A stretch of 57,308 bases of DNA from a virus (lineage: Duplodnaviria; Heunggongvirae; Uroviricota; Caudoviricetes): IMG/VR virus record IMGVR_UViG_2886837984_000001, positions 64,001 to 121,308 of that record; one strand, written 5' to 3'. This document shows, piece by piece, positions 7,840 to 46,376 of the stretch. The notes beneath the pieces are model-generated. The model was not told the DNA's origin, did not search any database, and was given only the letters and a program-made list of their open reading frames with translations. Each line of letters opens with the position of its first letter. Position 1 is the first letter of the stretch. A program made the position numbers and the translations under genes.

Positions 7840-8527
7840 ATTGAATAGCGCCATCATCAAACAGGGTGGTGGTTTTGATTTTGAGAAAGACAAAGAGGCC
7901 ACGAAGAGTTACTTCGTCGACTACGTGAACGAGAATACGGTTTTCTTCCACGATCTAAAAGAGAAATTAGAGTACATGGTTGAAAACGAATATTACGAAC
8001 GAGAGTTTTTGGAGAAGTACACATTCACTCAGATCAAGAAGCTGTTTAAGTATGTGTACAGCAAAAAGTTCCGTTTCCAATCGTTTATGTCAGCCTTCAA
8101 GACATACAACAACTATGTATTGAAGACAAATGACGGGAAACGTTTCCTGGAGCGCTACGAAGACCGTGTGTCAATCGTCGCCCTCTATCTGGGTCGAGGT
8201 GATTTCGAACTGGCGATGCGACTGGCCGAGGCGATGATCACGCAGCAACTTCAACCGGCAACGCCTACCTTCTTGAGTGCTGGACGAGCACGTCGAGGAG
8301 AATTGGTAAGTTGCTTCCTGCTCAACGTGAATGACTCGATGAATTCGATCGGCCACAACTTAAACAACGCCTTACAGTTATCGAAACGCGGTGGCGGTGT
8401 AGCAATCGATTTGACGAGTCTTCGAGCTCAAGGTGAGGCGATTAAAGAGATCGAAAACGCAGCGAGCGGTGTAGTTCCTGTCATGAAATTGTTGGAGGAT
8501 TCGTTTTCATATGCAAATCAACTGGGT
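7811..8527 (+). CDS. nrdE: Class Ib RNR alpha subunit, exon 1 of 3 (spliced product about 698 aa)
   Basis: [34 protein letters not shown], ends ...YANQLG. TTG start with RBS GAGGT. Confidence 0.93.
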
Positions 8528-8815
8528 TAATTCGGCTCAGTATAAATGTGGTCAATTGCTGGAACTCCCGAGTATATCCGAGTAGGATACCATCCAGAGA
8601 TGAGATGGCGACCCCTGAAAATCGAGGATTGCGGAAAATCAGCAGCCAAGCTTCTTTATCAGAAGAAGGTTCAACGACTAAGTGATTGTAAGAGCAATCT
8701 TTCAATCCGAACCACACGCAATAGCGAATATATAGTCTGATCCTTATGGCGACATGAGGAGTACGGCAGAAATGACCGTACCGCCAACAATTGTTGGTCT
8801 ACAAGTAACAGAATG
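8528..8815 (+). mobile_element. Group I intron nrdE-I1 (288 nt, no ORF)
   Basis: Exon ends in U and intron ends in G. IGS GCTCAGT (8535-8541) pairs with ACTGGGT. P/Q/R/S: AATTGCTGGAA, AATCAGCAGC, GTTCAACGACT, ATATAGTC. Splicing restores QLG|QRAGSG. Confidence 0.93.
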
Positions 8816-9238
8816 CAACGCGCCGGTAGCGGAGCTGTTTACCTAAATATCTTCCATGCGGATGTTGAAATGTTCCTCAGTACAAAAAAAGTAAACAGCG
8901 ACGAAAAGGTTCGAATTAAAACGCTCTCGCTCGGTCTGATTGCGCCCGATAAGTTCTTCGATCTGGCCGCAAAAGACCAGGATATGTATGTCTTTTATCC
9001 TCATACAGTCTATAAAGAGTACGGTGTGCGTTTAAACGAAATGGATATGACCGAAATGTATGACAAGTTGGTCGAGAACCCGAACGTCCGTAAACGACGT
9101 GTTATTGCTCGAGACTTGCTGAATGAGATTGCTAAGACTCAGATGGAGTCAGGTTATCCGTACATCATGTACATTGACAATGCGAATAAAGACAATCAGT
9201 TAAAGGACATCGGAAAGATTAAGATGTCAAACTTGTGT
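8816..9238 (+). CDS. nrdE: Class Ib RNR alpha subunit, exon 2
   Basis: QRAGSGAVYLNIFH...ESGYPYI...KMSNLC, ending on the thiyl-radical Cys. Confidence 0.93.
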
Positions 9239-9503
9239 TAGATTCTAGCACCTTCTACGAGCGATCGTAGTCGAAAACTCCGTTAAACGGGGAAACTCTC
9301 ACATGAGACAATCCCGTAGTAAAGATTCGCATATGCGATAAAAAACTCTAACGACTATCCCATTTGGGAGTACGCCATAAGCGATTGATGGCGGAAAAGC
9401 GGAGCATCTTACATAGATGATGATATAGTCTCCTCTGCATGGCGACATGTAGCAGTTCATAAGAGAACGCGTTGTTCGGTAGCGTGAATAACGGAAGACA
9501 AGG
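9239..9503 (+). mobile_element. Group I intron nrdE-I2 (265 nt, no ORF)
   Basis: TGT|tag ... acaagG|ACA. TAAACGGGGAA, AATCCCGTAG, TCTAACGACTA, GATATAGTC. Splicing restores SNLC|TEILQ. Confidence 0.92.
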
Positions 9504-10472: not shown

Positions 10473-11060
10473 ATGACACAAACGACACATAAGGCGGTCA
10501 ATTGGGACACGCCGACAAATGATTACGCTGAGATGTTCTGGCTTCAGAACACGAAACAAGTATGGTTTCCCGAAGAGATTCCGGTGTCGAAAGACGTAAA
10601 AGACTGGTCTCTCATGAATGAAGATGAGAAAGACGCTTATTCTAAGGTGTTAGCCGGACTCACAGCACTCGACACGATCCAAGGAGGGAGCGGTATGCCG
10701 CTCCTCTCTCTTATGATGGATGACCTTCAGGTGAAAGCTGTATTTACATTCCAGGCAGCTATGGAGTGCGTTCACGCAAGAAGTTATTCGACCATCTTTA
10801 CAACCCTTCTTCCGAAATCTAAGATTGACGGATATTTCAAGTGGGTTGAAGAGAACGAATTGCTTCAACGTAAGGCAGAGTTATTCGAGGGTGTATATCG
10901 CAACTTAGAGAAAGATAATCCTTTGTCTGTCTACAAGGGTCTTGTCGCTTCGGTAGCCCTGGAAACGGGAGCGTTTTACAGCGGTTTCTACTATCCACTC
11001 CTTCTTAAAGGTCAGGGTCGGATGACATCGAGCGGAGAGATTATTAAATTGATCGTGCGT
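10473..11060 (+). CDS. nrdF: Class Ib RNR beta subunit, exon 1 of 2 (spliced product about 327 aa)
   Basis: WFPEEIPVSKD, LTALDTIQ, ECVHARSYS, LETGAFYSGFY, ends IIKLIVR. Confidence 0.93.
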
Positions 11061-11308
11061 TGAATATGAAAGATGGCGCACGTAAAACCTTTTGAATTCA
11101 GGGAACATCCTAACGTAGAGACGAGGACAATCCTGAGCCAAGGTCGCATATGTGACAAGGTGCAACGACCATCTCGAAAGAGAGTACATCGTAAGCGATT
11201 GACGATGGAAGCGGAAGGCGACGAAAGTCGATGATATGGTCTGATCTGCATGGAGACATGTAGCTGCGAAAGCGCCCCTCTTAGTAGCGTGAGAGGGGGA
11301 ACATTATG
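11061..11308 (+). mobile_element. Group I intron nrdF-I1 (248 nt, no ORF)
   Basis: CGT|tga ... ttatG|GAT. IGS GCGCACG (11076-11082) pairs with CGTGCGT. GAATTCAGGGAA, AATCCTGAGC, GCAACGACCA / ATGGTC. Splicing restores IVR|DESIHG. Confidence 0.93.
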
Positions 11309-15485: not shown

Positions 15486-16138
15486 TCAAAGAGTTGTTGA
15501 AGAATCAGGATGGCGTCAAGCGCCTTCAACAGTATCGGTACAAGTGTTTCTCGGTTCTAACATTAGAACAGAAGAAGAAGGTGTGTCGCTCGTGGATACG
15601 TGGGAGTGACGCAAAATGGATCTCGTGCTACTACGAAATCTCAGAAAAAGACGTGACGACCTGTACGAAAGAGCTTTATCAGATGGCGATGTCTCTCGGA
15701 CAAAAGAACGAACTGACACGAGACTTCGTCTGCTCGGACGGACTCGTTTATCTGATCGGTGAGATGTTGAACCATTGGAGTGTAAGAGAATTGCGTAAAG
15801 AGATCGGACTTACGACCAAGCAGCTTAGTGCGATTCGTGAACGTTATGAGCTGTTGACAGGGATTCCTTCAAAGCGAACGCCCGATAAAGACCGCAATCA
15901 TTTTAGCTTTGTGCGAGATGAGATTTCTCGGACGAGCCCTCATGACGGGTCGAAGATGAAGGTGCTGGACTGCCCGCTTCAGATGACGACGGAGCTCAAG
16001 TTCGACGGGATGGACTTCACGAAGGTCAAAGATTCGTACTACTGTATGGAATCATTGCGCGAATTCTTCGGATATGACGGAGACGACAACGGAAATCCGA
16101 AAGGGTTATACGAGATTCGCTACGAATACATCGATTGA
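15482..16138 (+). CDS. Hypothetical protein, paralogue of the previous gene
   Basis: 218-aa ORF with ATGA overlap. Confidence 0.75.
   Translation: MIKELLKNQDGVKRLQQYRYKCFSVLTLEQKKKVCRSWIRGSDAKWISCYYEISEKDVTTCTKELYQMAMSLGQKNELTRDFVCSDGLVYLIGEMLNHWSVRELRKEIGLTTKQLSAIRERYELLTGIPSKRTPDKDRNHFSFVRDEISRTSPHDGSKMKVLDCPLQMTTELKFDGMDFTKVKDSYYCMESLREFFGYDGDDNGNPKGLYEIRYEYID
15554..15569. repeat. Single consensus 16-bp palindrome inside a CDS
   Basis: GTTCTAACATTAGAAC. Confidence 0.7.
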
Positions 16139-36140: not shown

Positions 36141-36165
36141 AAAAAGGAGAGCCGAAGCCCTCCTT
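36141..36165 (-). terminator. Intrinsic terminator after the TMP
   Basis: AAGGAGGGC-TTCG-GCTCTCCTT + T-run. The Dit RBS follows immediately. Confidence 0.8.
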
Positions 36166-39100
36166 AGCGTTTTCCGTACTTGTTGTTAATGAGGTTCATC
36201 GTGCGCTTCATGAAGTCGTCCGATGCCTCTTTGCCGTCCTTGATCTCGTTGTTGCTGAAATCGTTGTTGATGTTCTCGATATGAACCGTCGGAGCGCTAG
36301 ACCCCTTGACGCTCTGCATCTTGTTGATGAGCGAACGGAGAGGTGAGATGAGGCGGTCGGTGAATTCTACCGTCTTCAACATGTTCTTCGTCTGCTCTTG
36401 GTTGAGCACGAGCTCCTTCTTGTGGAGGATCGCCGGCATACCGCCGTTGAACTCGCCCGTGTACATACCGCCCGAAGCGAACGACCCGACGAAGTTCTTG
36501 TTCACATACCCCGTCTTGTCTCCGTATTGCACCTCATACATGAGCCCACGGTCACGGAGGATTTTGATCGACGTCCCTTTCGGGATCGATGTCATGATTC
36601 CTTCTACCGAGATATACGGGTTCGCATAAAGTGCGGCGTTCGAGCTCGTCTTCGCGTTCTTGTCGATCGTCGTGCTTCCTTTTAATGATTCGTACAGGGC
36701 GTCGAACTCGCGCTTGGCTCGGATGATCTCCGACTGCATGTCCGATAGGGACTTGACGTACTCGTCGAGCGCCTTGTTTCGATCTTCGTTCGTCGATGCC
36801 GACTCGTAAGCCGAATAATACTTCTGAAGAGCCGACTGTTGTTTCGATTTAATCCGGTTCGTACTATCCGTCACCATGTCGTCATAGACACGTTTGCCGG
36901 AATCGTAAGAGATCGAGTCGACACGGGCGTTATGCGCTTTTGCCGTCACGCTGTACTGCTTCAACAACTCGTTGATCGGTGCGCTCGCCTGATTGAGCTC
37001 CGACGCTCTCGTATGGCTCATCGCCACACCCCATGAGTTCGATTGTTTCGATGTGGACAGTTCTGAATTACTTACCCAACCCGTCTGACCGTTAGAAAGC
37101 TTAACTTTAGAATGTGTACCCGTCTGCTCAAGAACCTCGTACCCTTTTCCGTCGACCAACGACCCGATCACTTTAGAACTGCCGTTCGCATCTGCTCTCA
37201 CCGATACCGGTTTGGCAGAACCCGTTTGAGCCGCATACATCGATAACCCTGTCACCGGTGCTTCTTGCGATAAGTCGTCTCCCGAGCTCGGATTCTTGTA
37301 ATCCGTATCGAAATCTTTCCCTGTCAATTGCGAAAGAAGGTCTAACGCCTCTTTCAGCTTGTCGATGTAGTTCGTCTGCAAGACCTGTCCGAGAGAGTCG
37401 AACGAACTTTGAGACGTATGCACGATATCGCCCAACGCTTTTGAAATTGTGTCTGCGAGCGCGATGGTCTCGTACTCTGTGTCGTCGTAGAGATACGACA
37501 AATCTTTGAGCACGTCCTGATACGTCTTACCGAGGTTGTCGTACATCGTTCTGAATCCTTTCGATGTATCGATCAACATCTCGTTCGCCATCCGTTTCAC
37601 TTCGTCGAAGTTCCCTTTCATGGCTTGTTCGCGGATTTCGTTCCACTTCCGCTCGTCGTTCAACACGTCGTCGTAATATTTATTCAGGTCTTCGAGCATC
37701 TTGTCGAACAATGCCGATTCCGCTTCTTCACGACGATCCATGTCTTCCTCGAACTTCTCGTAGTTCTCGTCCTCTACCTTCTGTTTGTCATCGAGGTTCT
37801 TCTCGTACAATTCACGTTCTTTATCGATGGCTTCCTTCTGTTTCTCGAAGTCTCGTTGATACAGGTATTCCTCGCGCTCCTCTTGGAGTGTCTGGAGCTC
37901 TTTCATCAACTCTTTGCGTTTCGCCTTTGCCTCGAACGAGTCGTCCATCGAGATGCGGTTGATCGAACTACGGATCTCTTGCTCACGCTCCGAATACTCG
38001 TCCATCTGTTTCTGATGGCTTCGCTCGTCGTTCTGTTCATCTAAACGTTTGATACGCTCGTCGAAGAAGTCGTTCATCTTCTCGCGCTCTTTGTCTAGCT
38101 CCTTCATCGTCTTCTCGTGGGCATTCTGTCGGACGTTGCGTTCACGCTGAATGGCCTTCTCGCGCTCCTGCTGAATCTTCTCGATCGACTTGATCTCCGC
38201 GTCGCGCTGCGCCTCCAAAGCTTCGCGGATTGTTTCAATCATGCTGTCAGAGAAACCTCCGAGCATGTCTTTTTGAGCGGAGTTAAGGCTGTTCACCGAA
38301 TCCTCGAGCGACAACAGCTCCTCGCTGTACCGCTTCACGAATTCAAGTTGTTGTTCGTACTCTTTTGAGGATGCCCCGTATTTCTTGCGAACCTCTGACA
38401 AGATGGCTCTCTCTGCCTCTAGTTGCCGCTTCTTGATGTCCCAAAGCTTGCGCTCCGTCTTTTCTTGCTCGACGGTCGTGACATATTTCTTGACGAGGTC
38501 GGTGTTCGACTCACCGTCCATGATCGCCAATTGACGTTGGAAGAAATCTTGATTTTTTTTAAGGTCACGCATTTGATTTTCGTACAGTTTATTACGAATC
38601 TCTGTACGCTCGCGCGCGATTTCCATCGCCGCCTGACGCTCTTCCTGAATCTCTTGTTTGAGAACCCATCTGAGGTCGTCGAGTCGTGCCGTGAACTCGG
38701 CTTGACGAGATAGCGATAACTGCTTGTAATAAGCGCCTTTTCGATCTTTTTCCATTTGAATGATCTCGAGCTCGACGGCACGACGTTGGAGTCTCGCGTT
38801 GTTTTGCAGTTTCTCGTAGAGAGCCAACGATTGACGGGTGTACTCGACCGTCGTCTCCATGTTCGCGCGGACAAGCTCCTCGTCTTTCCCGTATCTGTCG
38901 TACATCGACTTATACGTGTTCGCCCGAGCGTTGAGGTAGTCGAGGATAATCTGTTGTCTGCTGTCTTCGATCTTGTTGAGCTCTTCAATCTGACGGATTT
39001 CTTCGGCTTTCTGTTCAGCTAGATTCTGTGCTTTTTCTGCCTGCGCTTTTGTTTGGTCGGCAATCTTCTTCTCTTGGTCTACCTGAGTAGAAGAGACGGA

Positions 39101-42100
39101 TGCTGCCGAAGTTGAAGGAGATTTACCTTGCGAAACCTTCGTATACATCGATGTGACGCCGTTTTTCCAATGAGCATTTAGTCCAGTTGGGTCGTTCCCG
39201 GCTCCGTTTGGCGCATATTTCTTCTGGATCTCAGCAATAGATGTAAGACCTTTTGTGATGTAGTTTCGAGACAAATTGCTGATCATCGCAGAGATGCCTT
39301 CGTCTAGCGACTTGAACACCGTCTGCTTCGTCCAGTTCGAAGAAGGACTCATTAATCCGCCTGGGTTGTTGTAGTTTTTAACCCCGTTAGACGTCCCGTT
39401 TCCTGTCTCGAACATCGCTATCGCCATCGCAAGAGCAGGGTCTACCCCGTACTTTTCTCCATATTTATTGAAAAGATGCTCCTGACCCTTGAATGCGCCT
39501 TGACCGACGCCGCTCGAAACCTTATTAAACGACGACGAAGAAGTTGATGCTTTAGAAATCGATGAAGAGGCACTTGAAGAGTATCCATATGTATTTCGTT
39601 TGCTGTATACGGCTTGTCTTGCTGCTACAGTCGGGTTAAGAAGGTTTGTGTTCCATTTACCCATAGAAGAACGTTGTTCGTAGTGGACGTGAGGGCCGGT
39701 CGAGTTTCCTGTGTTACCAACCGTCCCGATGCGTTGGCCGACGCCGACTTTAGCGCCCTTTTTGGCTTCAATCTTATCGAGGTGTCCGTAGATATGGAAA
39801 ATTCCCGACGTGTCCTGGATGACGACGTTGTTTCCATACTCGGAAGGAATTCCTAGAGATTTGTTCGCTCCACCAGCATGAATGACCGTACCGTTGACGT
39901 TCGACTCTAAAGGAGTTCCGCGCTTGTTGGCAATATCAATCCCTTCGTGTTGCCACGTTTTTCCGTTGATCGTCCGCATAGAACCATATGAGGAACTAAT
40001 TTTTGCGCCAGACCAACCGCTCAACGAACGTGTCCCGGTTTTCTGAAATCCTCCTGTTGCAGAAGAGTTAGAACCATTGTATGCGACGTCGTAGCTGTTG
40101 GTTGTTCCGCCTCGAGCGACGATATTCCCGTTGGCGTCTGTGACGACTTCCTGTGTCGATGTTTGAACACCCGTACTCGCAATAACCTGTTTAGATTTGT
40201 TGGCATCTTGAAGCGCCTTAATGTAATCTGTGACAGATTTTTTCTGTTTATCCATTGCTTTGATCTCGGACTCGAGCGCCTTGATATAGGCTTTTGAACC
40301 GTTAGCATATTTGTTCTTGAACGCAGACTGCTTCTGGACGGCCAATGTCGCCTTGTCGATAGCTTCCGTATATTTATTCGTCAAGTAGGTAGAACGAGAG
40401 ATTGTATCCTGCTTGTTCTTCTCTGACTTAGATGAATCCTTGTTCGCTTCTTCAGCCGCTTTGTTCGCATTGTAAAGGTCTTGTGTCGAAGTTGTGACCG
40501 TAGCTACAATCTTACGAGCGTTTTCTTCGGACTTTTTCATTCCGTTAATGAACTCGTCTGTGCTAGATAAGTCTGCCGTAAGTCTTCCGATCATATCTCC
40601 GGCGTACATCTGTCTGCCGTAGTTCGGGTCATCCGGGTCGATCGAGTTCATTTTATTCTCAATATCAGCAATCTGCTTGGCTGTCTCTTGTTTTACTAGA
40701 ACTAAAGCCTTTTCTGCTTCTGCGATCGAGGTGATCCCTGCAATACGATCTGCCGTCAATTCTGCGGAGAACCTTGCAGTAAATTCATCCTGGAGACGTT
40801 GTGCAGTCGCCTGTTTCAGTTTTTCTTCGAACTGAAGTCGTTGCGTCTCACGAAGTTCCTCGATAAGACCTGTGTTGACCGTCACCATGCCGTTCGATAC
40901 ATCGAATGCGTCGATCAGCTCTGGATATTTGTCGATCAACCCCATCATTTCGCTCGCCGTGAATTGATGTCCTTCTGCACTCTTATGTAAAACGTCGTTA
41001 TAAGCGTCTACCGTACCGACAACATCTCTCAGCGCATCTTTCTGGTATCCCAACGCCTCTTCGAGCATTCCGATCCCTGTGGCTGCTGTTTCGGCAGACT
41101 CACCAAGATTTTCGTTGCCTTCGGTTAAGTCGGATACGCCGGCCAAAGCATCGTAGGCCGCGCTCTGCGTTTCCTCCATCTTCGCATTTTGCATGACGAT
41201 AGCCGCTGTCGCAGTATTGATCGCATGTCCCTCTTCAGAAGCTACCTGAATGATCTGTCTGCCAGAATTGGCGACATCGGTCTTCGCTTGCTCTAAGGCT
41301 TGATATTGCGCGAGGTAGCTTCCAGTTAAGCCTGAATCCGTTGCCACATTCGCAGCGCCCAATATTCTCTTCTGTTCGTTCTCAAGTTCGACGATTTTTT
41401 GAGCGTAGGTGTTGATGAATTTCGTGGCTTCTTCCATCTGTTTATTTCCGCTCGCGCTCTTAAACAACGTCTCATCAAAGCTAGGCATATCTGTAAGGAT
41501 ATTAGAAATGTCCAAGATATCCATCTTAACTTTTTCGATCTCAACCAACAGCTTGTCTACGTTGAATTCGCCGTTTTCGTCAACCGCGTTTTTCAACGCT
41601 TTGTCGACAATATCTTGATCGATGTTTGTGACGAGGGAGTCAACTAATTTCTGCTGTTCTCCAGCAAGATTTGCGTATTCATCCGAAGATTGGATAGACA
41701 GTGTGATCTGGTCTCGCGTAAGCTTGATCCGTTCCATCTGAGACTGTTTCAACAGACGTTCCGCCGCAAGTTCTCCTCGCTTGTCTCTCTCTCGAGCCTT
41801 GCCGACATCATCTGCTCCGGCCGAATAGATTGCGGAGTCGGTGATTGCGCCTTGCGCCATCTCCATGTCTCTCGCATATTCTTCATCCGTCATCTTCTTC
41901 TTGTTCAGATACTTCTCGTAGTCCTTGTTCGCTTTTTCAAGCTGTTCCGCATTATCAACCAAAGAGTCTTCGTTTTTATCTGACTTCTTCATCGCTTCGA
42001 GCTGTTGCATCTCTTTGAGCGATTTGATGTACTCTTGGGCAGAAACGGATGTCGATAGGTGCGTCCGTCCAAGTTCGTCGACGTGTGTCACGAGCTCGGG

Positions 42101-43159
42101 CAGATAGCCTCCTAGAGATTTGGCCGTCGAATACATAAGTTCGGTCTCTTCCGCCGAACGGTTCGTGTTGGCCTGAAGATTCTCGTAACGTTCTGCAAGC
42201 ATGTCGATCGTGTCAGAATTATCGCTATATGCTTTAACAAGCTCTTTTTGTTCTTGTTTTGCTTTCGCGACTTCCGCACGTTGTTTTGTGAACGCAGAAA
42301 TGAGAGCTCCGATTGCTACGGTAGCCGCTGCGATTCCTGCCCCGATGACAAGAGATGTTCCGATTGCCGCCATCGTCGTCACCATGAATCCTTTAACGGC
42401 CGTTCCTGCAATACGGAATCCTCCGGCTGTGGCGTGAGCCGCACCTTTGACTTTATCCAAAGACGTCGCGACGTTACCATTTATCGGGACGACCTTTTGA
42501 TTTTCGTTCCGACTTTTCACAACAGCAGCGGTGGCATCCTGGTAAGAAGATGTCACACCTTGCAATTTCTCTCTGAAAGCGGCCAAAGGCTTCTCGTCGA
42601 ATACGGCATTACGGACTCCACCGTTCATGAGCGTCGTAAGACCACCCGTGACCCCTGCGAGCATCGTGAAACCTGCGAGCAAGTTTCCTTTAGAGAAGTC
42701 CAGCGAGATCAATGCGTTGATGCTGTTGACCATGTAACGAAGGTCGTTCGTGACGGTCGTGATCATATCGACGAACACGGTGTTTCCTGCCGACAATGCG
42801 AGTTCTTCCCACGCCACCTTGAGCTTGTTGACCTTGGCTTGCGCCGACTCGAGATAACGGGCGTTCTCTTGCATGGCCGACCCTTGCGAGTTGATAGACG
42901 TGTTCGTCGCTTTGACGGCGACGTCGTAGTTTTGCATGAGACCAAGAAATCTCGAGATTTGGAAGCGGCCTGCCAATTGAACAGCAAGGTTTTGTTGTTG
43001 TGCATTCGTGAGATTGTTCCACTTGCCAGAAAGATCTTCTAAGATTCTTGCGTAAGCCCGTGTTGTTCCGTCTTCTTCAAATACTTCGATTCCGACGTCT
43101 TTTAAAGAACTTACTGATCCACTCATTGTTACACGAGAGAAAATTGTCTTGAGCGAGTT
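36164..43159 (-). CDS. Tape measure protein, exon 3 (contains M23 peptidase, glucosaminidase/lysozyme-like domain, two SH3b-like domains)
   Basis: Starts NSLKTIFSR. HEGIDIAN...YGHL...STGPHVHYE. YGVDPALAMAIAMFETG...NNPGGL. SH3b-like GQTGWV and KTGYV segments. Confidence 0.9.
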   Translation of the reverse strand, partial: NSLKTIFSRVTMSGSVSSLKDVGIEVFEEDGTTRAYARILEDLSGKWNNLTNAQQQNLAVQLAGRFQISRFLGLMQNYDVAVKATNTSINSQGSAMQENARYLESAQAKVNKLKVAWEELALSAGNTVFVDMITTVTNDLRYMVNSINALISLDFSKGNLLAGFTMLAGVTGGLTTLMNGGVRNAVFDEKPLAAFREKLQGVTSSYQDATAAVVKSRNENQKVVPINGNVATSLDKVKGAAHATAGGFRIAGTAVKGFMVTTMAAIGTSLVIGAGIAAATVAIGALISAFTKQRAEVAKAKQEQKELVKAYSDNSDTIDMLAERYENLQANTNRSAEETELMYSTAKSLGGYLPELVTHVDELGRTHLSTSVSAQEYIKSLKEMQQLEAMKKSDKNEDSLVDNAEQLEKANKDYEKYLNKKKMTDEEYARDMEMAQGAITDSAIYSAGADDVGKARERDKRGELAAERLLKQSQMERIKLTRDQITLSIQSSDEYANLAGEQQKLVDSLVTNIDQDIVDKALKNAVDENGEFNVDKLLVEIEKVKMDILDISNILTDMPSFDETLFKSASGNKQMEEATKFINTYAQKIVELENEQKRILGAANVATDSGLTGSYLAQYQALEQAKTDVANSGRQIIQVASEEGHAINTATAAIVMQNAKMEETQSAAYDALAGVSDLTEGNENLGESAETAATGIGMLEEALGYQKDALRDVVGTVDAYNDVLHKSAEGHQFTASEMMGLIDKYPELIDAFDVSNGMVTVNTGLIEELRETQRLQFEEKLKQATAQRLQDEFTARFSAELTADRIAGITSIAEAEKALVLVKQETAKQIADIENKMNSIDPDDPNYGRQMYAGDMIGRLTADLSSTDEFINGMKKSEENARKIVATVTTSTQDLYNANKAAEEANKDSSKSEKNKQDTISRSTYLTNKYTEAIDKATLAVQKQSAFKNKYANGSKAYIKALESEIKAMDKQKKSVTDYIKALQDANKSKQVIASTGVQTSTQEVVTDANGNIVARGGTTNSYDVAYNGSNSSATGGFQKTGTRSLSGWSGAKISSSYGSMRTINGKTWQHEGIDIANKRGTPLESNVNGTVIHAGGANKSLGIPSEYGNNVVIQDTSGIFHIYGHLDKIEAKKGAKVGVGQRIGTVGNTGNSTGPHVHYEQRSSMGKWNTNLLNPTVAARQAVYSKRNTYGYSSSASSSISKASTSSSSFNKVSSGVGQGAFKGQEHLFNKYGEKYGVDPALAMAIAMFETGNGTSNGVKNYNNPGGLMSPSSNWTKQTVFKSLDEGISAMISNLSRNYITKGLTSIAEIQKKYAPNGAGNDPTGLNAHWKNGVTSMYTKVSQGKSPSTSAASVSSTQVDQEKKIADQTKAQAEKAQNLAEQKAEEIRQIEELNKIEDSRQQIILDYLNARANTYKSMYDRYGKDEELVRANMETTVEYTRQSLALYEKLQNNARLQRRAVELEIIQMEKDRKGAYYKQLSLSRQAEFTARLDDLRWVLKQEIQEERQAAMEIARERTEIRNKLYENQMRDLKKNQDFFQRQLAIMDGESNTDLVKKYVTTVEQEKTERKLWDIKKRQLEAERAILSEVRKKYGASSKEYEQQLEFVKRYSEELLSLEDSVNSLNSAQKDMLGGFSDSMIETIREALEAQRDAEIKSIEKIQQEREKAIQRERNVRQNAHEKTMKELDKEREKMNDFFDERIKRLDEQNDERSHQKQMDEYSEREQEIRSSINRISMDDSFEAKAKRKELMKELQTLQEEREEYLYQRDFEKQKEAIDKERELYEKNLDDKQKVEDENYEKFEEDMDRREEAESALFDKMLEDLNKYYDDVLNDERKWNEIREQAMKGNFDEVKRMANEMLIDTSKGFRTMYDNLGKTYQDVLKDLSYLYDDTEYETIALADTISKALGDIVHTSQSSFDSLGQVLQTNYIDKLKEALDLLSQLTGKDFDTDYKNPSSGDDLSQEAPVTGLSMYAAQTGSAKPVSVRADANGSSKVIGSLVDGKGYEVLEQTGTHSKVKLSNGQTGWVSNSELSTSKQSNSWGVAMSHTRASELNQASAPINELLKQYSVTAKAHNARVDSISYDSGKRVYDDMVTDSTNRIKSKQQSALQKYYSAYESASTNEDRNKALDEYVKSLSDMQSEIIRAKREFDALYESLKGSTTIDKNAKTSSNAALYANPYISVEGIMTSIPKGTSIKILRDRGLMYEVQYGDKTGYVNKNFVGSFASGGMYTGEFNGGMPAILHKKELVLNQEQTKNMLKTVEFTDRLISPLRSLINKMQSVKGSSAPTVHIENINNDFSNNEIKDGKEASDDFMKRTMNLINNKYGKR

Positions 43160-43438
43160 CATGTCTGTTACTTTCTTTTGTCCTAATATTCTAATGTTAG
43201 AATATATAAGTTCTAATGTTAGAACAAAATACTGACCAACATATACCTGAAACCCGTTGGCGGAGAGGCGCTTCAACCTCTCTCTTGCAGTCTCCTGCAA
43301 AGTTCAGACTATCGCTTCACATACACATGGGTATGTGTCTTTTCGTTTAGTCGTTCACGCTGCCATTACGCTTGCGCCCTGTTGTCCCATATGAGGGAGT
43401 TCCAAGTCGATTAGAAAAGATTTTACATCGGCAACTCT
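43160..43438 (-). mobile_element. Group I intron TMP-I2 (279 nt, no ORF)
   Basis: Minus strand ATCGGT|agagttGCCGAT (6-bp P1 with U-G). TCTTTTC/GAAAAGA P3. GTGAACGACTA / GATAGTC P7. Ends ...acatG|AAC. Splicing restores ANIG|NSLKTIFSR. Confidence 0.9.
43188..43225. repeat. Palindrome array 4 (2 copies) inside intron TMP-I2
   Basis: ATTCTAATGTTAGAAT (43188) and GTTCTAATGTTAGAAC (43210), 22-bp phase. Confidence 0.9.
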
Positions 43439-43592
43439 ACCGATATTCGCTCCTGAATCTCGTGTTACTTCCTGTACTGCCGTGATATAGCCAAGTAGTT
43501 CGTCCATCGATACGCCGTAAGTGTTTGCGGCGGCCGCAGATCGACCCATCGCGATTGCCAGGTCTTTTGTAGTTGTAGCATACGAATTATCT
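43439..43592 (-). CDS. Tape measure protein, exon 2 (154 nt)
   Basis: (V)DNSYATTTKDLAIAMGRSAAAANTYGVSMDELLGYITAVQEVTRDSGANIG: TMP core motif. Confidence 0.9.
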
Positions 43593-43872
43593 CATGGAAA
43601 TTATTGTAAAATAACTAATAATTTCTAACTGTTACTTTCACCTTTCGGCTACTGACCCTTTTGGGCGGATATACATTTCTGCATACCTCTCATGCTTATT
43701 CTGAATCGCATGAGGTCGGACTGTACCTTTATCCGTTCTGGATAGGTGATGGCAGTCTCTAGCGGTCTCCTGTTTAGGATTTCCGTCGGTATTGCCCTTT
43801 GAATCAGATAGGGGTTTCACCGATATACACCATTTCGTCAATCACATTCCTGTGAAGGGAGGCAGACATTTT
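43593..43872 (-). mobile_element. Group I intron TMP-I1 (280 nt, no ORF)
   Basis: Minus strand GAGGT|aaaatgtctGCCTC (P1). TATATCGGTGAA, AATACCGACGG, CTAGAGACTG / ACAGTCC. Ends ...tccatG|A GAT. Splicing restores LNEV-DNSY. Confidence 0.9.
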
Positions 43873-46376
43873 ACCTCGTTCAACTTATCGATGATCATCA
43901 TCGATTTTTCCGCTTCTACGTTAAAGACCGACATTCCGGTGATCAACGTCTCAGACATCTCTTGTGCCGACAAATCGGATACGTTCGATGCGATGACAGA
44001 TGTCTTCGTCAATGCGTTCAACTGTTCTTCCGAATAGTTGCCCGACTTCGCGAAGTTCTCCATCGCATAGTTGATATCTGTGACCGTCTTCCCGAGTTCT
44101 TTCGCCATCTCGATGTTTCCGGCCAAGACCTCGTCAAAGTTCGTGTCGGCGTCCATGACACGTTTCAAGTTCGTCATCTGCGTGTCTACCTGCATGATGA
44201 TGTTGTACATGCTGGTCAGACCTTGGATCGGCGCATAGAACGCGCTCGAGGCGAGCATCCATACCGGGAACTTCTCGAATGCGGTACGCATCGAATAACC
44301 GACCGTGTCGGTCGCCCCGCGCAACTCTTTCATGTTGTTCCGTAGGCGGACGGTACGCGCCTGAATCTCGTCCATTTGCGTCGTCCAGTTTTTGTATGTC
44401 GTGTTACCTTTGTCGTCTGTAATCGACTGGATGAGCGAAGCGCCCTTATCTCCTCGTCTGACCGCCGAAAGACGATCTTCCGCTTCTTTGGCCAACGCTT
44501 GGATTTGTTTATATTCTTCCTTGTACCGACCTCTCATGCCTCGACTATACGATTGACGAACCTCTGCCAACAACGATTCACGTTGGGCGAACATCGAAGA
44601 TGCGCTTGCGATGTCTTCTTTTTGTCCGACACCACCGCGATAACGCTCCGACATCTCACGCTTGAGTTGACTATATTTTTTACGGATTTCGTCGATCTCT
44701 TTGATCGTTTTCGCAGAATTGATATTAACCGAGAAATCGTCAAGACGTTTAACGTCAGCTCCGAGAAGCTTATATTTGGATCTAATATCGTCAAGACCGT
44801 CAATCATCCCTCGTTTCTTGCCAAGGAATTCTTTATCGACCCCCGTCTGACCACGAAGCATCTCCCCATACTCTTTCTTGAACTCGGCCATCCGCTTGGA
44901 CGTCGGGTCGTTCTTGAGCATTTCGAGTGATTGCTGCATCGCTGAGACTTGTCTCTCTGTATATTCTACGCCTTCCTTATCGGCCATACGTCCGTCTTTT
45001 TTCATATCGTTGATACGCTTCTGATAACGAGCCGCATCGTTCATTACACGGACTTCAGCCGCGAGGTCATTAATACCCACCCCGATGACCGCATTATTTT
45101 CTGGTGTCAGCGTCTTACGGATACGTTCCCGCATCGATTTGATCCGTTTCTCGTCGACCAGTCCGTTGTTCTCGACCCAATCCATACGGGACAGCATGGC
45201 CGGAACCTGGTTGAACGCAGCCTTCATGCGTCGAATCTCGGCGTTGACCAACTTCTTCTCATCGACCGTGTTGACACCCGAGATCTTCTTATCGAACTCT
45301 GCGAAGATCTTCTGTTTCGACTTTCCGAGTTTGACACCGGCGTCTTCTAGTCCTGCCGTGATGGTCATCAACTGAGACAGTTCGTTCTGAAGTCCCTTGC
45401 GAAGCGTCTTGTGTTCGAACACTTCGCCAAGATTTTTGGTTTTTTCTTCCATGACATCCATCGTCGAAGCAAATTCTTTTAATGATTTTGTGTCGTAGAG
45501 GTCTGCACCTTGGAGCGTCTTCTCGAACTTCTTCATATCCTTCTCGAGATCCGTCCGGTCGCCGTTGTTGTTGAAGCGGTTCTGTTTGAAGCCGTCGATC
45601 TGTTTCTGAACCTCTTTTTGACGCTTCAGAAGCTTCTCTTGCTCGGCTTCGATACGTTTGTAGTCGCGGACGACCTGTTCATTCGTCTGCATGAGCATCT
45701 GGGCGATATCGCCTGTCGTCTCGTCGACGACACCGCGCATCTCATAAAACGTCTTCTTGAGAGATCCGACCGAATCTGTATATTCGACCGCAAAGCCCTT
45801 CAGTTCGCCTTGAGATTTTTTGGCCGTACTTTTCTTAACACGATTCCCCATCGCCTCGATGTCACGCTCGACGTCTGCGATATCCTTGTACATCTTCTTA
45901 ATATCTTTATTGAGGTCGTCTGTCAGCGTCTTGACGCCCTTGGCATCCGATTGGTTCTGCGCGAGAGCCGGATTCGTTTTAGCCGCTTCAGCAGATGATA
46001 CCGATTGAAGGTTCGTCTTGATCTTGATCGGTTCGGAGAAGATGTTCTGAATCTTCTTCTTCGAATCTCTCGCCATCTGTTCGATCTCTTTGAGCGTCGA
46101 CTGCATCGCGTCACGATGTTCCTTACGAGCTCCACGGAGGGCAGATGTATAGGTACTGATGATCTTCCTCGTGTTCTTCTCGATCGCTCCCTCGATATCT
46201 TCGGTCATCGATTTCATCATCTTGTCGAAGTTGGCCGTGTCGACCTGTAAAGAGACGTTAAAATTCTTGGTCAACTTTTGTAGGTCGGACAGAGCGGTCT
46301 CCATATTCGTTTTCGATACGGCACGATCGACATCGAAAGCCATGACTAAAGAGTAATTTTGAGCATTATTAGCCAT
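43873..46376 (-). CDS. Tape measure protein, exon 1 (spliced gene 9654 nt, about 3217 aa)
   Basis: Long helical ORF ending in the TP901-type TMP core (VDTQMTNLKRV...NVSDLS....IIDKLNEV). Confidence 0.88.

Follow-up and report, generated by a model that had tools for sequence, protein, structure and literature searches.

An SPbeta-like phage tape measure gene probably interrupted by two ORF-less group I introns within its conserved PF10145 core

In prophages of the Bacillus cereus group, group I introns have been described in tape measure genes at three sites, designated TMP-IVS1, IVS2 and IVS3a/b, with two introns per gene in some strains and mostly without an endonuclease gene (Tourasse and Kolsto 2008, PMC2504315). 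According to the same study, similar introns were retargeted through P1/P10, different introns could occupy one site, and a tape measure intron is also listed for Lactobacillus phage JCL1032 (PMC2504315). Splicing of the tape measure intron of Vibrio phage ICP1 was followed by RNA-seq and RT-PCR and yields the full-length frame, and the tape measure gene was termed frequently interrupted (Barth et al. 2023, PMC10448857). Other virion or packaging genes with introns include terL of Lactobacillus phages LL-H and JCL1032 and the major head gene of Tuc2009 (PMC2504315, PMC4299906, PMC3706429), and Cluster J mycobacteriophages carry introns in capsid and tail genes, for which splicing was shown experimentally (PMC3706429). 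Tape measure genes that hold several group I introns have been on record since 2008, and the locus reported here represents no new kind of biology.

The DNA analyzed (the window) is a stretch of 57,308 nucleotides from a phage that is SPbeta-like and of Exiguobacterium type, the record of which carries direct terminal repeats, as a packaged genome would. The open reading frame list of the minus strand contains an 844-aa frame (46376-43842), which runs into intron 1, and a 2378-aa frame (43300-36164), which starts inside intron 2, and about 700 nt separate the conserved parts of the two. The initial annotation had called these two proteins misleading and had placed two group I introns around a 154-nt exon; its coordinates, exon lengths (2504 + 154 + 6996 = 9654 nt) and junctions (LNEV|DNSY and ANIG|NSLK) were reproduced exactly. 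When the exons were joined in silico, an open frame of 3217 aa was obtained in which the sole stop is the terminal one, and the Val codon at the first junction is split GT|A. The resulting gene model is as follows.

43873..46376, minus strand: tape measure exon 1, 2504 nt, ending ...AAC GAG GU, the last two letters being the first two bases of the split Val codon
43593..43872, minus strand: intron 1, 280 nt, without a homing endonuclease gene, predicted group I-type ribozyme, not detected by RF00028
43439..43592, minus strand: tape measure exon 2, 154 nt, consisting of 51 codons and the third base of the split Val codon
43160..43438, minus strand: intron 2, 279 nt, without a homing endonuclease gene, predicted canonical group I intron
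36164..43159, minus strand: tape measure exon 3, 6996 nt, encoding the remaining part of PF10145, then M23 peptidase, glucosaminidase and SH3 domains

The phage tail domain PF10145 (PhageMin_Tail) was found to be divided in order over the three exons, with profile positions 3-84 in exon 1, 87-132 in exon 2 and 136-201 in exon 3; the first match stops exactly at the end of exon 1, and the last begins at codon 1 of exon 3. The partial matches scored 32.9, 25.3 and 26.6 bits, each under the cut-off of 33.2 bits because the domain is split. An uninterrupted homologue is found in Bacillus phage Tsamsa, whose tape measure protein was aligned with the joined protein over 653 residues at 35% identity (E 2e-96); the alignment is free of gaps across both joints (...LNEVDNSYA... 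and ...SGANIGNSLKT...). By tblastn, exon 2 alone is matched by residues 775-825 of the Tsamsa protein, and residue 826 falls on base 43159. A single predicted tape measure protein of 3217 aa with lytic domains is accordingly read from the sequence in place of the 844-aa and 2378-aa frames and a spurious 64-aa frame.

Relatives were collected by a protein search with the N-terminal frame, which gave a dozen relatives truncated to a similar length, one of them from Exiguobacterium sp. s133; with the first 400 residues of exon 3 as the query, no relatives were found in viral contigs. Nine related contigs (L003-L011) were fetched, and the joined protein was mapped onto each of them. Gene callers had split the tape measure gene in every one. 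Three sites are used within the domain, namely S1 after LNEV, S2 after (A/T)(N/T)(I/V)G and S3 after Q(I/L)(S/T)R, and their occupancy is listed below.

Window and L003: S1 filled, S2 filled, S3 empty
L004, L007 and L008: S1 filled, S2 empty, S3 filled
L009: S1 filled, S2 empty, S3 empty
L005: S1 empty, S2 filled, S3 empty
L010 and L011: S1 empty, S2 filled, S3 filled
L006: S1 empty, S2 empty, S3 filled

The empty alleles are exact at S1 in L005, L006, L010 and L011 and at S2 in L004 and L006-L009. Filled and empty sites are mixed across the nine contigs, and the inserts are therefore considered to be mobile elements. S1 and S2 each host two unrelated intron types, and the introns at S1 of L004 and L009 and at S2 of L005 contain an ORF of 298 or 277 aa. 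The 298-aa ORF gave weak Vsr/DUF559 endonuclease-like matches in Pfam (E 5.5e-4, below the cut-off), and the 277-aa ORF gave no meaningful match against Pfam. When more distant phages and a Cytobacillus gottheilii prophage, which supplied the sites after DNN(Y/F)A, TFG and QIAG, were added, at least six intron sites could be counted in the PF10145 core of Bacillales phages (LNEV, DNN(Y/F)A, TFG, (N/T)(I/V)G, QIAG and Q(I/L)(S/T)R); the prophage (L018) carries three introns in a single tape measure gene. The much greater rarity of introns in virion structural genes, as assumed in the initial annotation, was thus overstated, since tape measure genes are a frequent group I target (PMC2504315; PMC10448857) and the relatives use this number of sites. 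In L011, an IS605 OrfB/TnpB (Cas12f-like) gene lies about 1 kb upstream of the tape measure gene (L011:361-1455).

Both 5' exons end in U, both inserts end in G, and a P1 guide is present in both introns, as previously noted. In each, the P10 strand lies directly 5' of the P1 strand.

43859..43868, minus strand: intron 1 internal guide, UGUCU (P10 strand, nt 5-9) followed by GCCUC (P1 strand, nt 10-14)
43427..43437, minus strand: intron 2 internal guide, GAGUU (P10 strand, nt 2-6) followed by GCCGAU (P1 strand, nt 7-12)

In intron 1, P1 is formed by exon GAGGU with GCCUC, with U.G at the cleavage site, and P10 by AGAUA of exon 2 with UGUCU; in intron 2, P1 is formed by exon AUCGGU with GCCGAU, with U.G at the 5' splice site, and P10 by AACUC of exon 3 with GAGUU. 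By simulation, a 5-bp P1 with U.G and an adjacent 5-bp P10 occur in about 4-5 per 10,000 random intron 5' ends. The start of exon 2 differs among relatives (AGAUA, GGACA or AGACA), and pairing with UGUCU is always kept, including in L003 and L008. The P1 strand of intron 1 likewise follows the exon, being GCCUC opposite GAGGU at S1 and GCCAGC opposite GCUGGU at the other site, after QIAG. The motif GAAAGUAACAG is common to all tape measure introns in the window and in L003-L022, across unrelated types, and is located 3-40 nt upstream of the 3' splice site, where it may form a P9.0-type contact or another tertiary element. The ORF-carrying introns at S1 of L004 (L004:4990-6194) and L009 (L009:3524-4725) restore ...NEVDNN... 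only with a terminal A (...CAGCCGUA|AGACAAC), and all nearby alternative joints, when enumerated in these two introns, gave a frameshift or a stop. The near-universal terminal G is hence absent from the frame-restoring joint of the ORF-carrying S1 introns on two independent contigs.

The catalytic core of intron 1 was assigned as follows.

43718..43759, minus strand: intron 1 catalytic core, with the P7 5' strand G(A)GACUG at nt 114-120 and the P3' strand CACC at nt 125-128
43718..43759, minus strand: intron 1 catalytic core, continued, with the P8 hairpin at nt 129-143, J8/7 AAGGUA, and the P7 3' strand CAGUCC at nt 150-155

The helices and junctions of intron 1 follow the same order as in RF00028, and J4/5 AAAC, J5/4 CAA and J8/7 AAGGUA resemble the consensus. 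Against RF00028, intron 1 gave no match even at E up to 10, and its homologues gave none at E up to 0.01. Pattern scans using the invariant core revealed intron 1 homologues at five further loci, at S1 of more distant tape measure genes in L012, L020 and L022 and after QIAG in L013 and L018, where the guide GCCAGC matches the exon GCUGGU; the scans also gave chance matches that are not introns (L014-L017 and L021). Covariation in the intron 1 family was evaluated on a nine-sequence alignment (A2) covering two tape measure sites. RNAalifold, applied unaided to A2, returned P2, P4, P5, an extended P6, P7, P8, P9 and a GNRA-capped P9.1, with compensatory changes in 26 of 52 pairs, and gave the P3 5' strand another possible partner. 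With the full group I model including the P3/P7 pseudoknot, 98.9% of cells were paired versus 35-42% when the partners were slid by 1-3 columns, double changes were present in 26 of 50 pairs, and none of 500 shuffles reached the observed values. Covariation falls in P2, P5, P6, P6a, P8, P9 and P9.1 of the nine sequences, and no variation occurs in P3 (GGUG/CACC), P4 and P7 (G(A)GACUG/CAGUCC, where the A is bulged); by analogy, these three helices of the core, together with the pseudoknot, are consistent with a group I layout. The invariant core of the lineage reads GGUGUAUAUCGGUGAAA ... GCUAGAGACUGCCAUCACC ... AAGGUACAGUCC, and its constancy together with the compensatory changes points to selection on the RNA. 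The single-sequence fold of intron 1 recovers most helices (MFE z-score -2.42). An extra AU-rich hairpin is found before the 3' splice site (43593-43627) in intron 1 of the window and of the three closest relatives and is missing from L012, L013, L018, L020 and L022. Intron 1 is, in our estimate, very probably a group I intron. Its lineage seems to be specialized on tape measure genes of Bacillales phages, in which it occupies the conserved core, and may have been retargeted between at least two sites by a change of the guide alone. Since this lineage is missed by the standard Rfam model, it could help to improve intron detection in phage genomes.

Intron 2 was assigned the following elements.

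43285..43420, minus strand: intron 2 core P3-P9, with P3 UCUUUUC/GAAAAGA, P4-P5-P6, P7 GACUA/UAGUC, and the P8 hairpin between the P7 strands
within 43285..43420, minus strand: intron 2 P9, a UUGCAG-GAGA-CUGCAA hairpin
43189..43224, minus strand: 14-bp palindrome TTCTAACATTAGAA, present twice with a spacing of 22 bp, in the peripheral 3' region of intron 2

The complementary P7 strands of both introns, which had been reported in the initial annotation, were thus located. Against RF00028, intron 2 scored 36.9 bits (E 5e-8) in a scan of 371 nt and 37.4 bits in a scan of the whole genome; the match depends on the filter, and a scan of a 1.4-kb piece was empty. The gathering threshold of RF00028 is 50 bits, which is a curation cut-off and no biological definition, and is reached by neither intron 1 nor intron 2; the score of intron 2 stays below it mainly because the P1-P2 part of the model is forced into exon 2. 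Further tape measure introns of the relatives scored 27-45 bits. The alignment of intron 2 spans the whole core, with J6/7-P7 ...AACGACUAAA, J8/7-P7' AAGCGAUAGUC and P9 with a GAGA loop. A 20-nt P6 motif of this core recurs in 50 viral contigs, and in 21 sequences of the intron 2 family analyzed by RNAalifold every P3 pair and most P5 and P8 pairs have changed on both sides and are still paired; P7 shows both-side changes in L030 and L035. The MFE z-score is -3.10, and the single-sequence fold recovers most helices. On these grounds intron 2 is almost certainly a group I intron, and the arrangement of two such introns around the 154-nt exon is well supported at the sequence level by the continuity of PF10145, the empty alleles, the guides and the covariation. 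A covariance model of the intron 2 family (R1), run with filters off, found intron 2 alone and scored the RF00028-positive introns of the plus strand at E 0.18 and 0.99; R1 is too family-specific and is therefore uninformative on intron 1.

About 80% identity was found between the first 95 nt of intron 2 and the gap by which the ribonucleotide reductase gene of Roseobacter phage CRP-118 is split (L001:2992-3391, corresponding to OR420741.1 35056-35455, between the two annotated CDS gp44 and gp45). This gap begins with a homologue of the intron 2 core, has its own P1 (UCCGU/GCGGA), was not detected by RF00028 at E up to 1, and very probably represents a group I intron missed in the annotation. 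In the homologous intron of L003 the 3' part is different and lacks the TTCTAACATTAGAA palindromes, and arrays of the palindrome occur elsewhere in the genome, around window positions 15554, 21275, 22002, 35263, 47920 and 49082. Further RF00028 matches in the same phage were obtained on the plus strand at window positions 8498-8759 (48 bits), 9229-9452 (64.7 bits) and 11032-11263 (73.3 bits) and elsewhere in the genome at C1:48321-48571 (13.2 bits). The phage genome holds many group I introns besides introns 1 and 2.

The position of the first stop codon was determined for each intron in the frame of the preceding exon.

43842..43844, minus strand: first in-frame stop, UGA, at intron 1 nt 29-31 in the P2 3' strand, ending the 844-aa read-through frame

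The initial annotation had pointed out that these introns do not begin with a stop; this holds for intron 1, in which the stop comes only at nt 29-31, and is ordinary as a feature (PMC2504315), an early translation stop inside the intron having been described for other phage introns too (PMC2504315). In intron 2 the reading frame stays open as far as nt 82-84, where the first stop falls within the core. This is deeper than usual, and ribosomes could disturb the folding of intron 2. Because of this unusual depth, it is proposed that intron 1 may shield intron 2 from ribosomes and so impose an order on the two splicing events; ribosomes would reach intron 2 only after removal of intron 1, and some dependence on splicing order is conceivable. 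The two genomes with the window-type S2 intron (window and L003; n=2) both also have an S1 intron. The combined proposal, in which intron 1 belongs to a separate group I lineage that is specialized on tape measure genes and retargeted by its guide and in addition shields intron 2, is tentative and rather unlikely as a whole. Intron 2 ends in an AUG (43160-43162) that shares the frame of exon 3 and is preceded, 8 nt upstream, by AGAAAG, and the S2 introns of the relatives likewise end in an in-frame AUG or GUG, which may explain why gene callers start the long protein there.

Four other readings of the inserts were tried and rejected. An intein was ruled out by in-frame stops in both inserts, a group II intron by the insert size of about 280 nt and the P1/P10/P7 anatomy of group I, and translational bypass by length and by the covarying RNA structure; skipping of exon 2 would give an exon 1-exon 3 joint of 9500 nt, which is out of frame.

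The reading preferred here is that of a single tape measure gene carrying two putatively self-splicing, ORF-less group I introns inside the PF10145 core, with a probability of about 0.88. If the inserts were instead never removed, the gene would work in pieces, with one product of 844 aa for the N-terminal part and another, for the C-terminal part, translated from the terminal AUG of intron 2. The frame and upstream AGAAAG string of that AUG would suit such a start, separate proteins are listed by gene callers in all relatives, and split phage genes that work as fragments have been cited (PMC10448857, its reference 8, ribonucleotide reductase). However, the cuts fall inside one conserved domain, the 51-codon piece has no start codon at its beginning, and exact guide pairings and a covarying ribozyme structure would be left without a purpose; moreover, conservation of GAAAGUAACAG is just as strong in intron 1, which has no in-frame start behind the motif. 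We regard a gene in pieces as very improbable. Decay of one or both ribozymes in a dead, non-functional tape measure gene is hardly more probable: both introns do lack an endonuclease gene, intron 1 is unrecognized by RF00028, and intron 2 has acquired, compared with L003, another 3' part that contains two DNA palindromes, but three exons are intact over 9.6 kb, the record has the terminal repeats expected of a packaged genome, and in independent samples the core of intron 1 is invariant while its peripheral hairpins stay paired via compensatory changes.

A regulatory role, also proposed in the initial annotation, would have the two splicing events time or dose tail assembly, with functional short isoforms made from partly spliced RNAs. 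Unspliced RNA would indeed give the 844-aa product and RNA lacking intron 1 alone a product of about 913 aa, and the inaccessibility of intron 2 to ribosomes before removal of intron 1 makes a dependence on order conceivable. Against this, the number of introns at these sites ranges from zero to two among close relatives, all combinations being found and the locus being otherwise unchanged, a presence/absence pattern which is that of selfish mobile elements; none of the conserved features hints at a regulatory role, and published tape measure introns are read as mobile elements (PMC2504315, PMC10448857). No support was found for gating or for truncated isoforms, the relatives with zero to two introns looking otherwise alike, and we consider such gating improbable, if somewhat less so than the two preceding alternatives. 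For the two introns we infer a selfish, non-regulatory role.

For the preferred reading of one gene with two introns, we infer the following splicing chemistry. Each intron would fold into a ribozyme after transcription, and its internal guide would pair with the end of the upstream exon (P1, with U.G at the cleavage site) and with the start of the downstream exon (P10). Free guanosine would attack the 5' splice site, the freed exon end would then attack behind the terminal G, and joining of the exons would give an mRNA for the 3217-aa tape measure protein, which includes cell-wall hydrolase domains. Both introns are probably remnants of mobile elements that homed into conserved tape measure sequence, and in relatives the same sites are empty, hold the same intron, or hold a different intron with an endonuclease-like ORF. 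The chief value of the analysis lies in annotation, through a corrected gene model with a single tape measure protein. In addition, the locus forms a well-resolved natural series, with at least six sites, two intron types per site, and introns with and without endonuclease-like ORFs, which shows group I introns retargeting within a single conserved domain.

Among the described systems, LL-H, JCL1032, Tuc2009 and the Cluster J phages resemble the present case in having self-splicing introns in late structural genes of phages of Gram-positive bacteria, and differ in the genes or phage groups concerned. ICP1 is similar in that an intron splits its tape measure gene, with two introns in isolate M4 (PMC10448857), and dissimilar in that its introns carry endonuclease genes, one of them an HNH gene, and its host is Gram-negative (PMC10448857). 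Intron 2 is like the RF00028 or T4 td type in J6/7-P7 (GACUAAA), J8/7-P7' (GAUAGUC) and the GNRA loop of P9, at 36.9 versus 50 bits. The TMP-IVS introns of the Bacillus cereus group were classed as IA1 or IA2 (PMC2504315), whereas the introns found here are without extra hairpins between P3' and P8, and the host group here is an SPbeta-like phage of Exiguobacterium type. In the remaining respects the TMP-IVS introns (PMC2504315) are alike, as they lie in the same gene at several sites, with two per gene and mostly no endonuclease gene, and share with the introns of this phage and its relatives the adaptation of P1/P10 to the site, the use of shared sites and an early translation stop.
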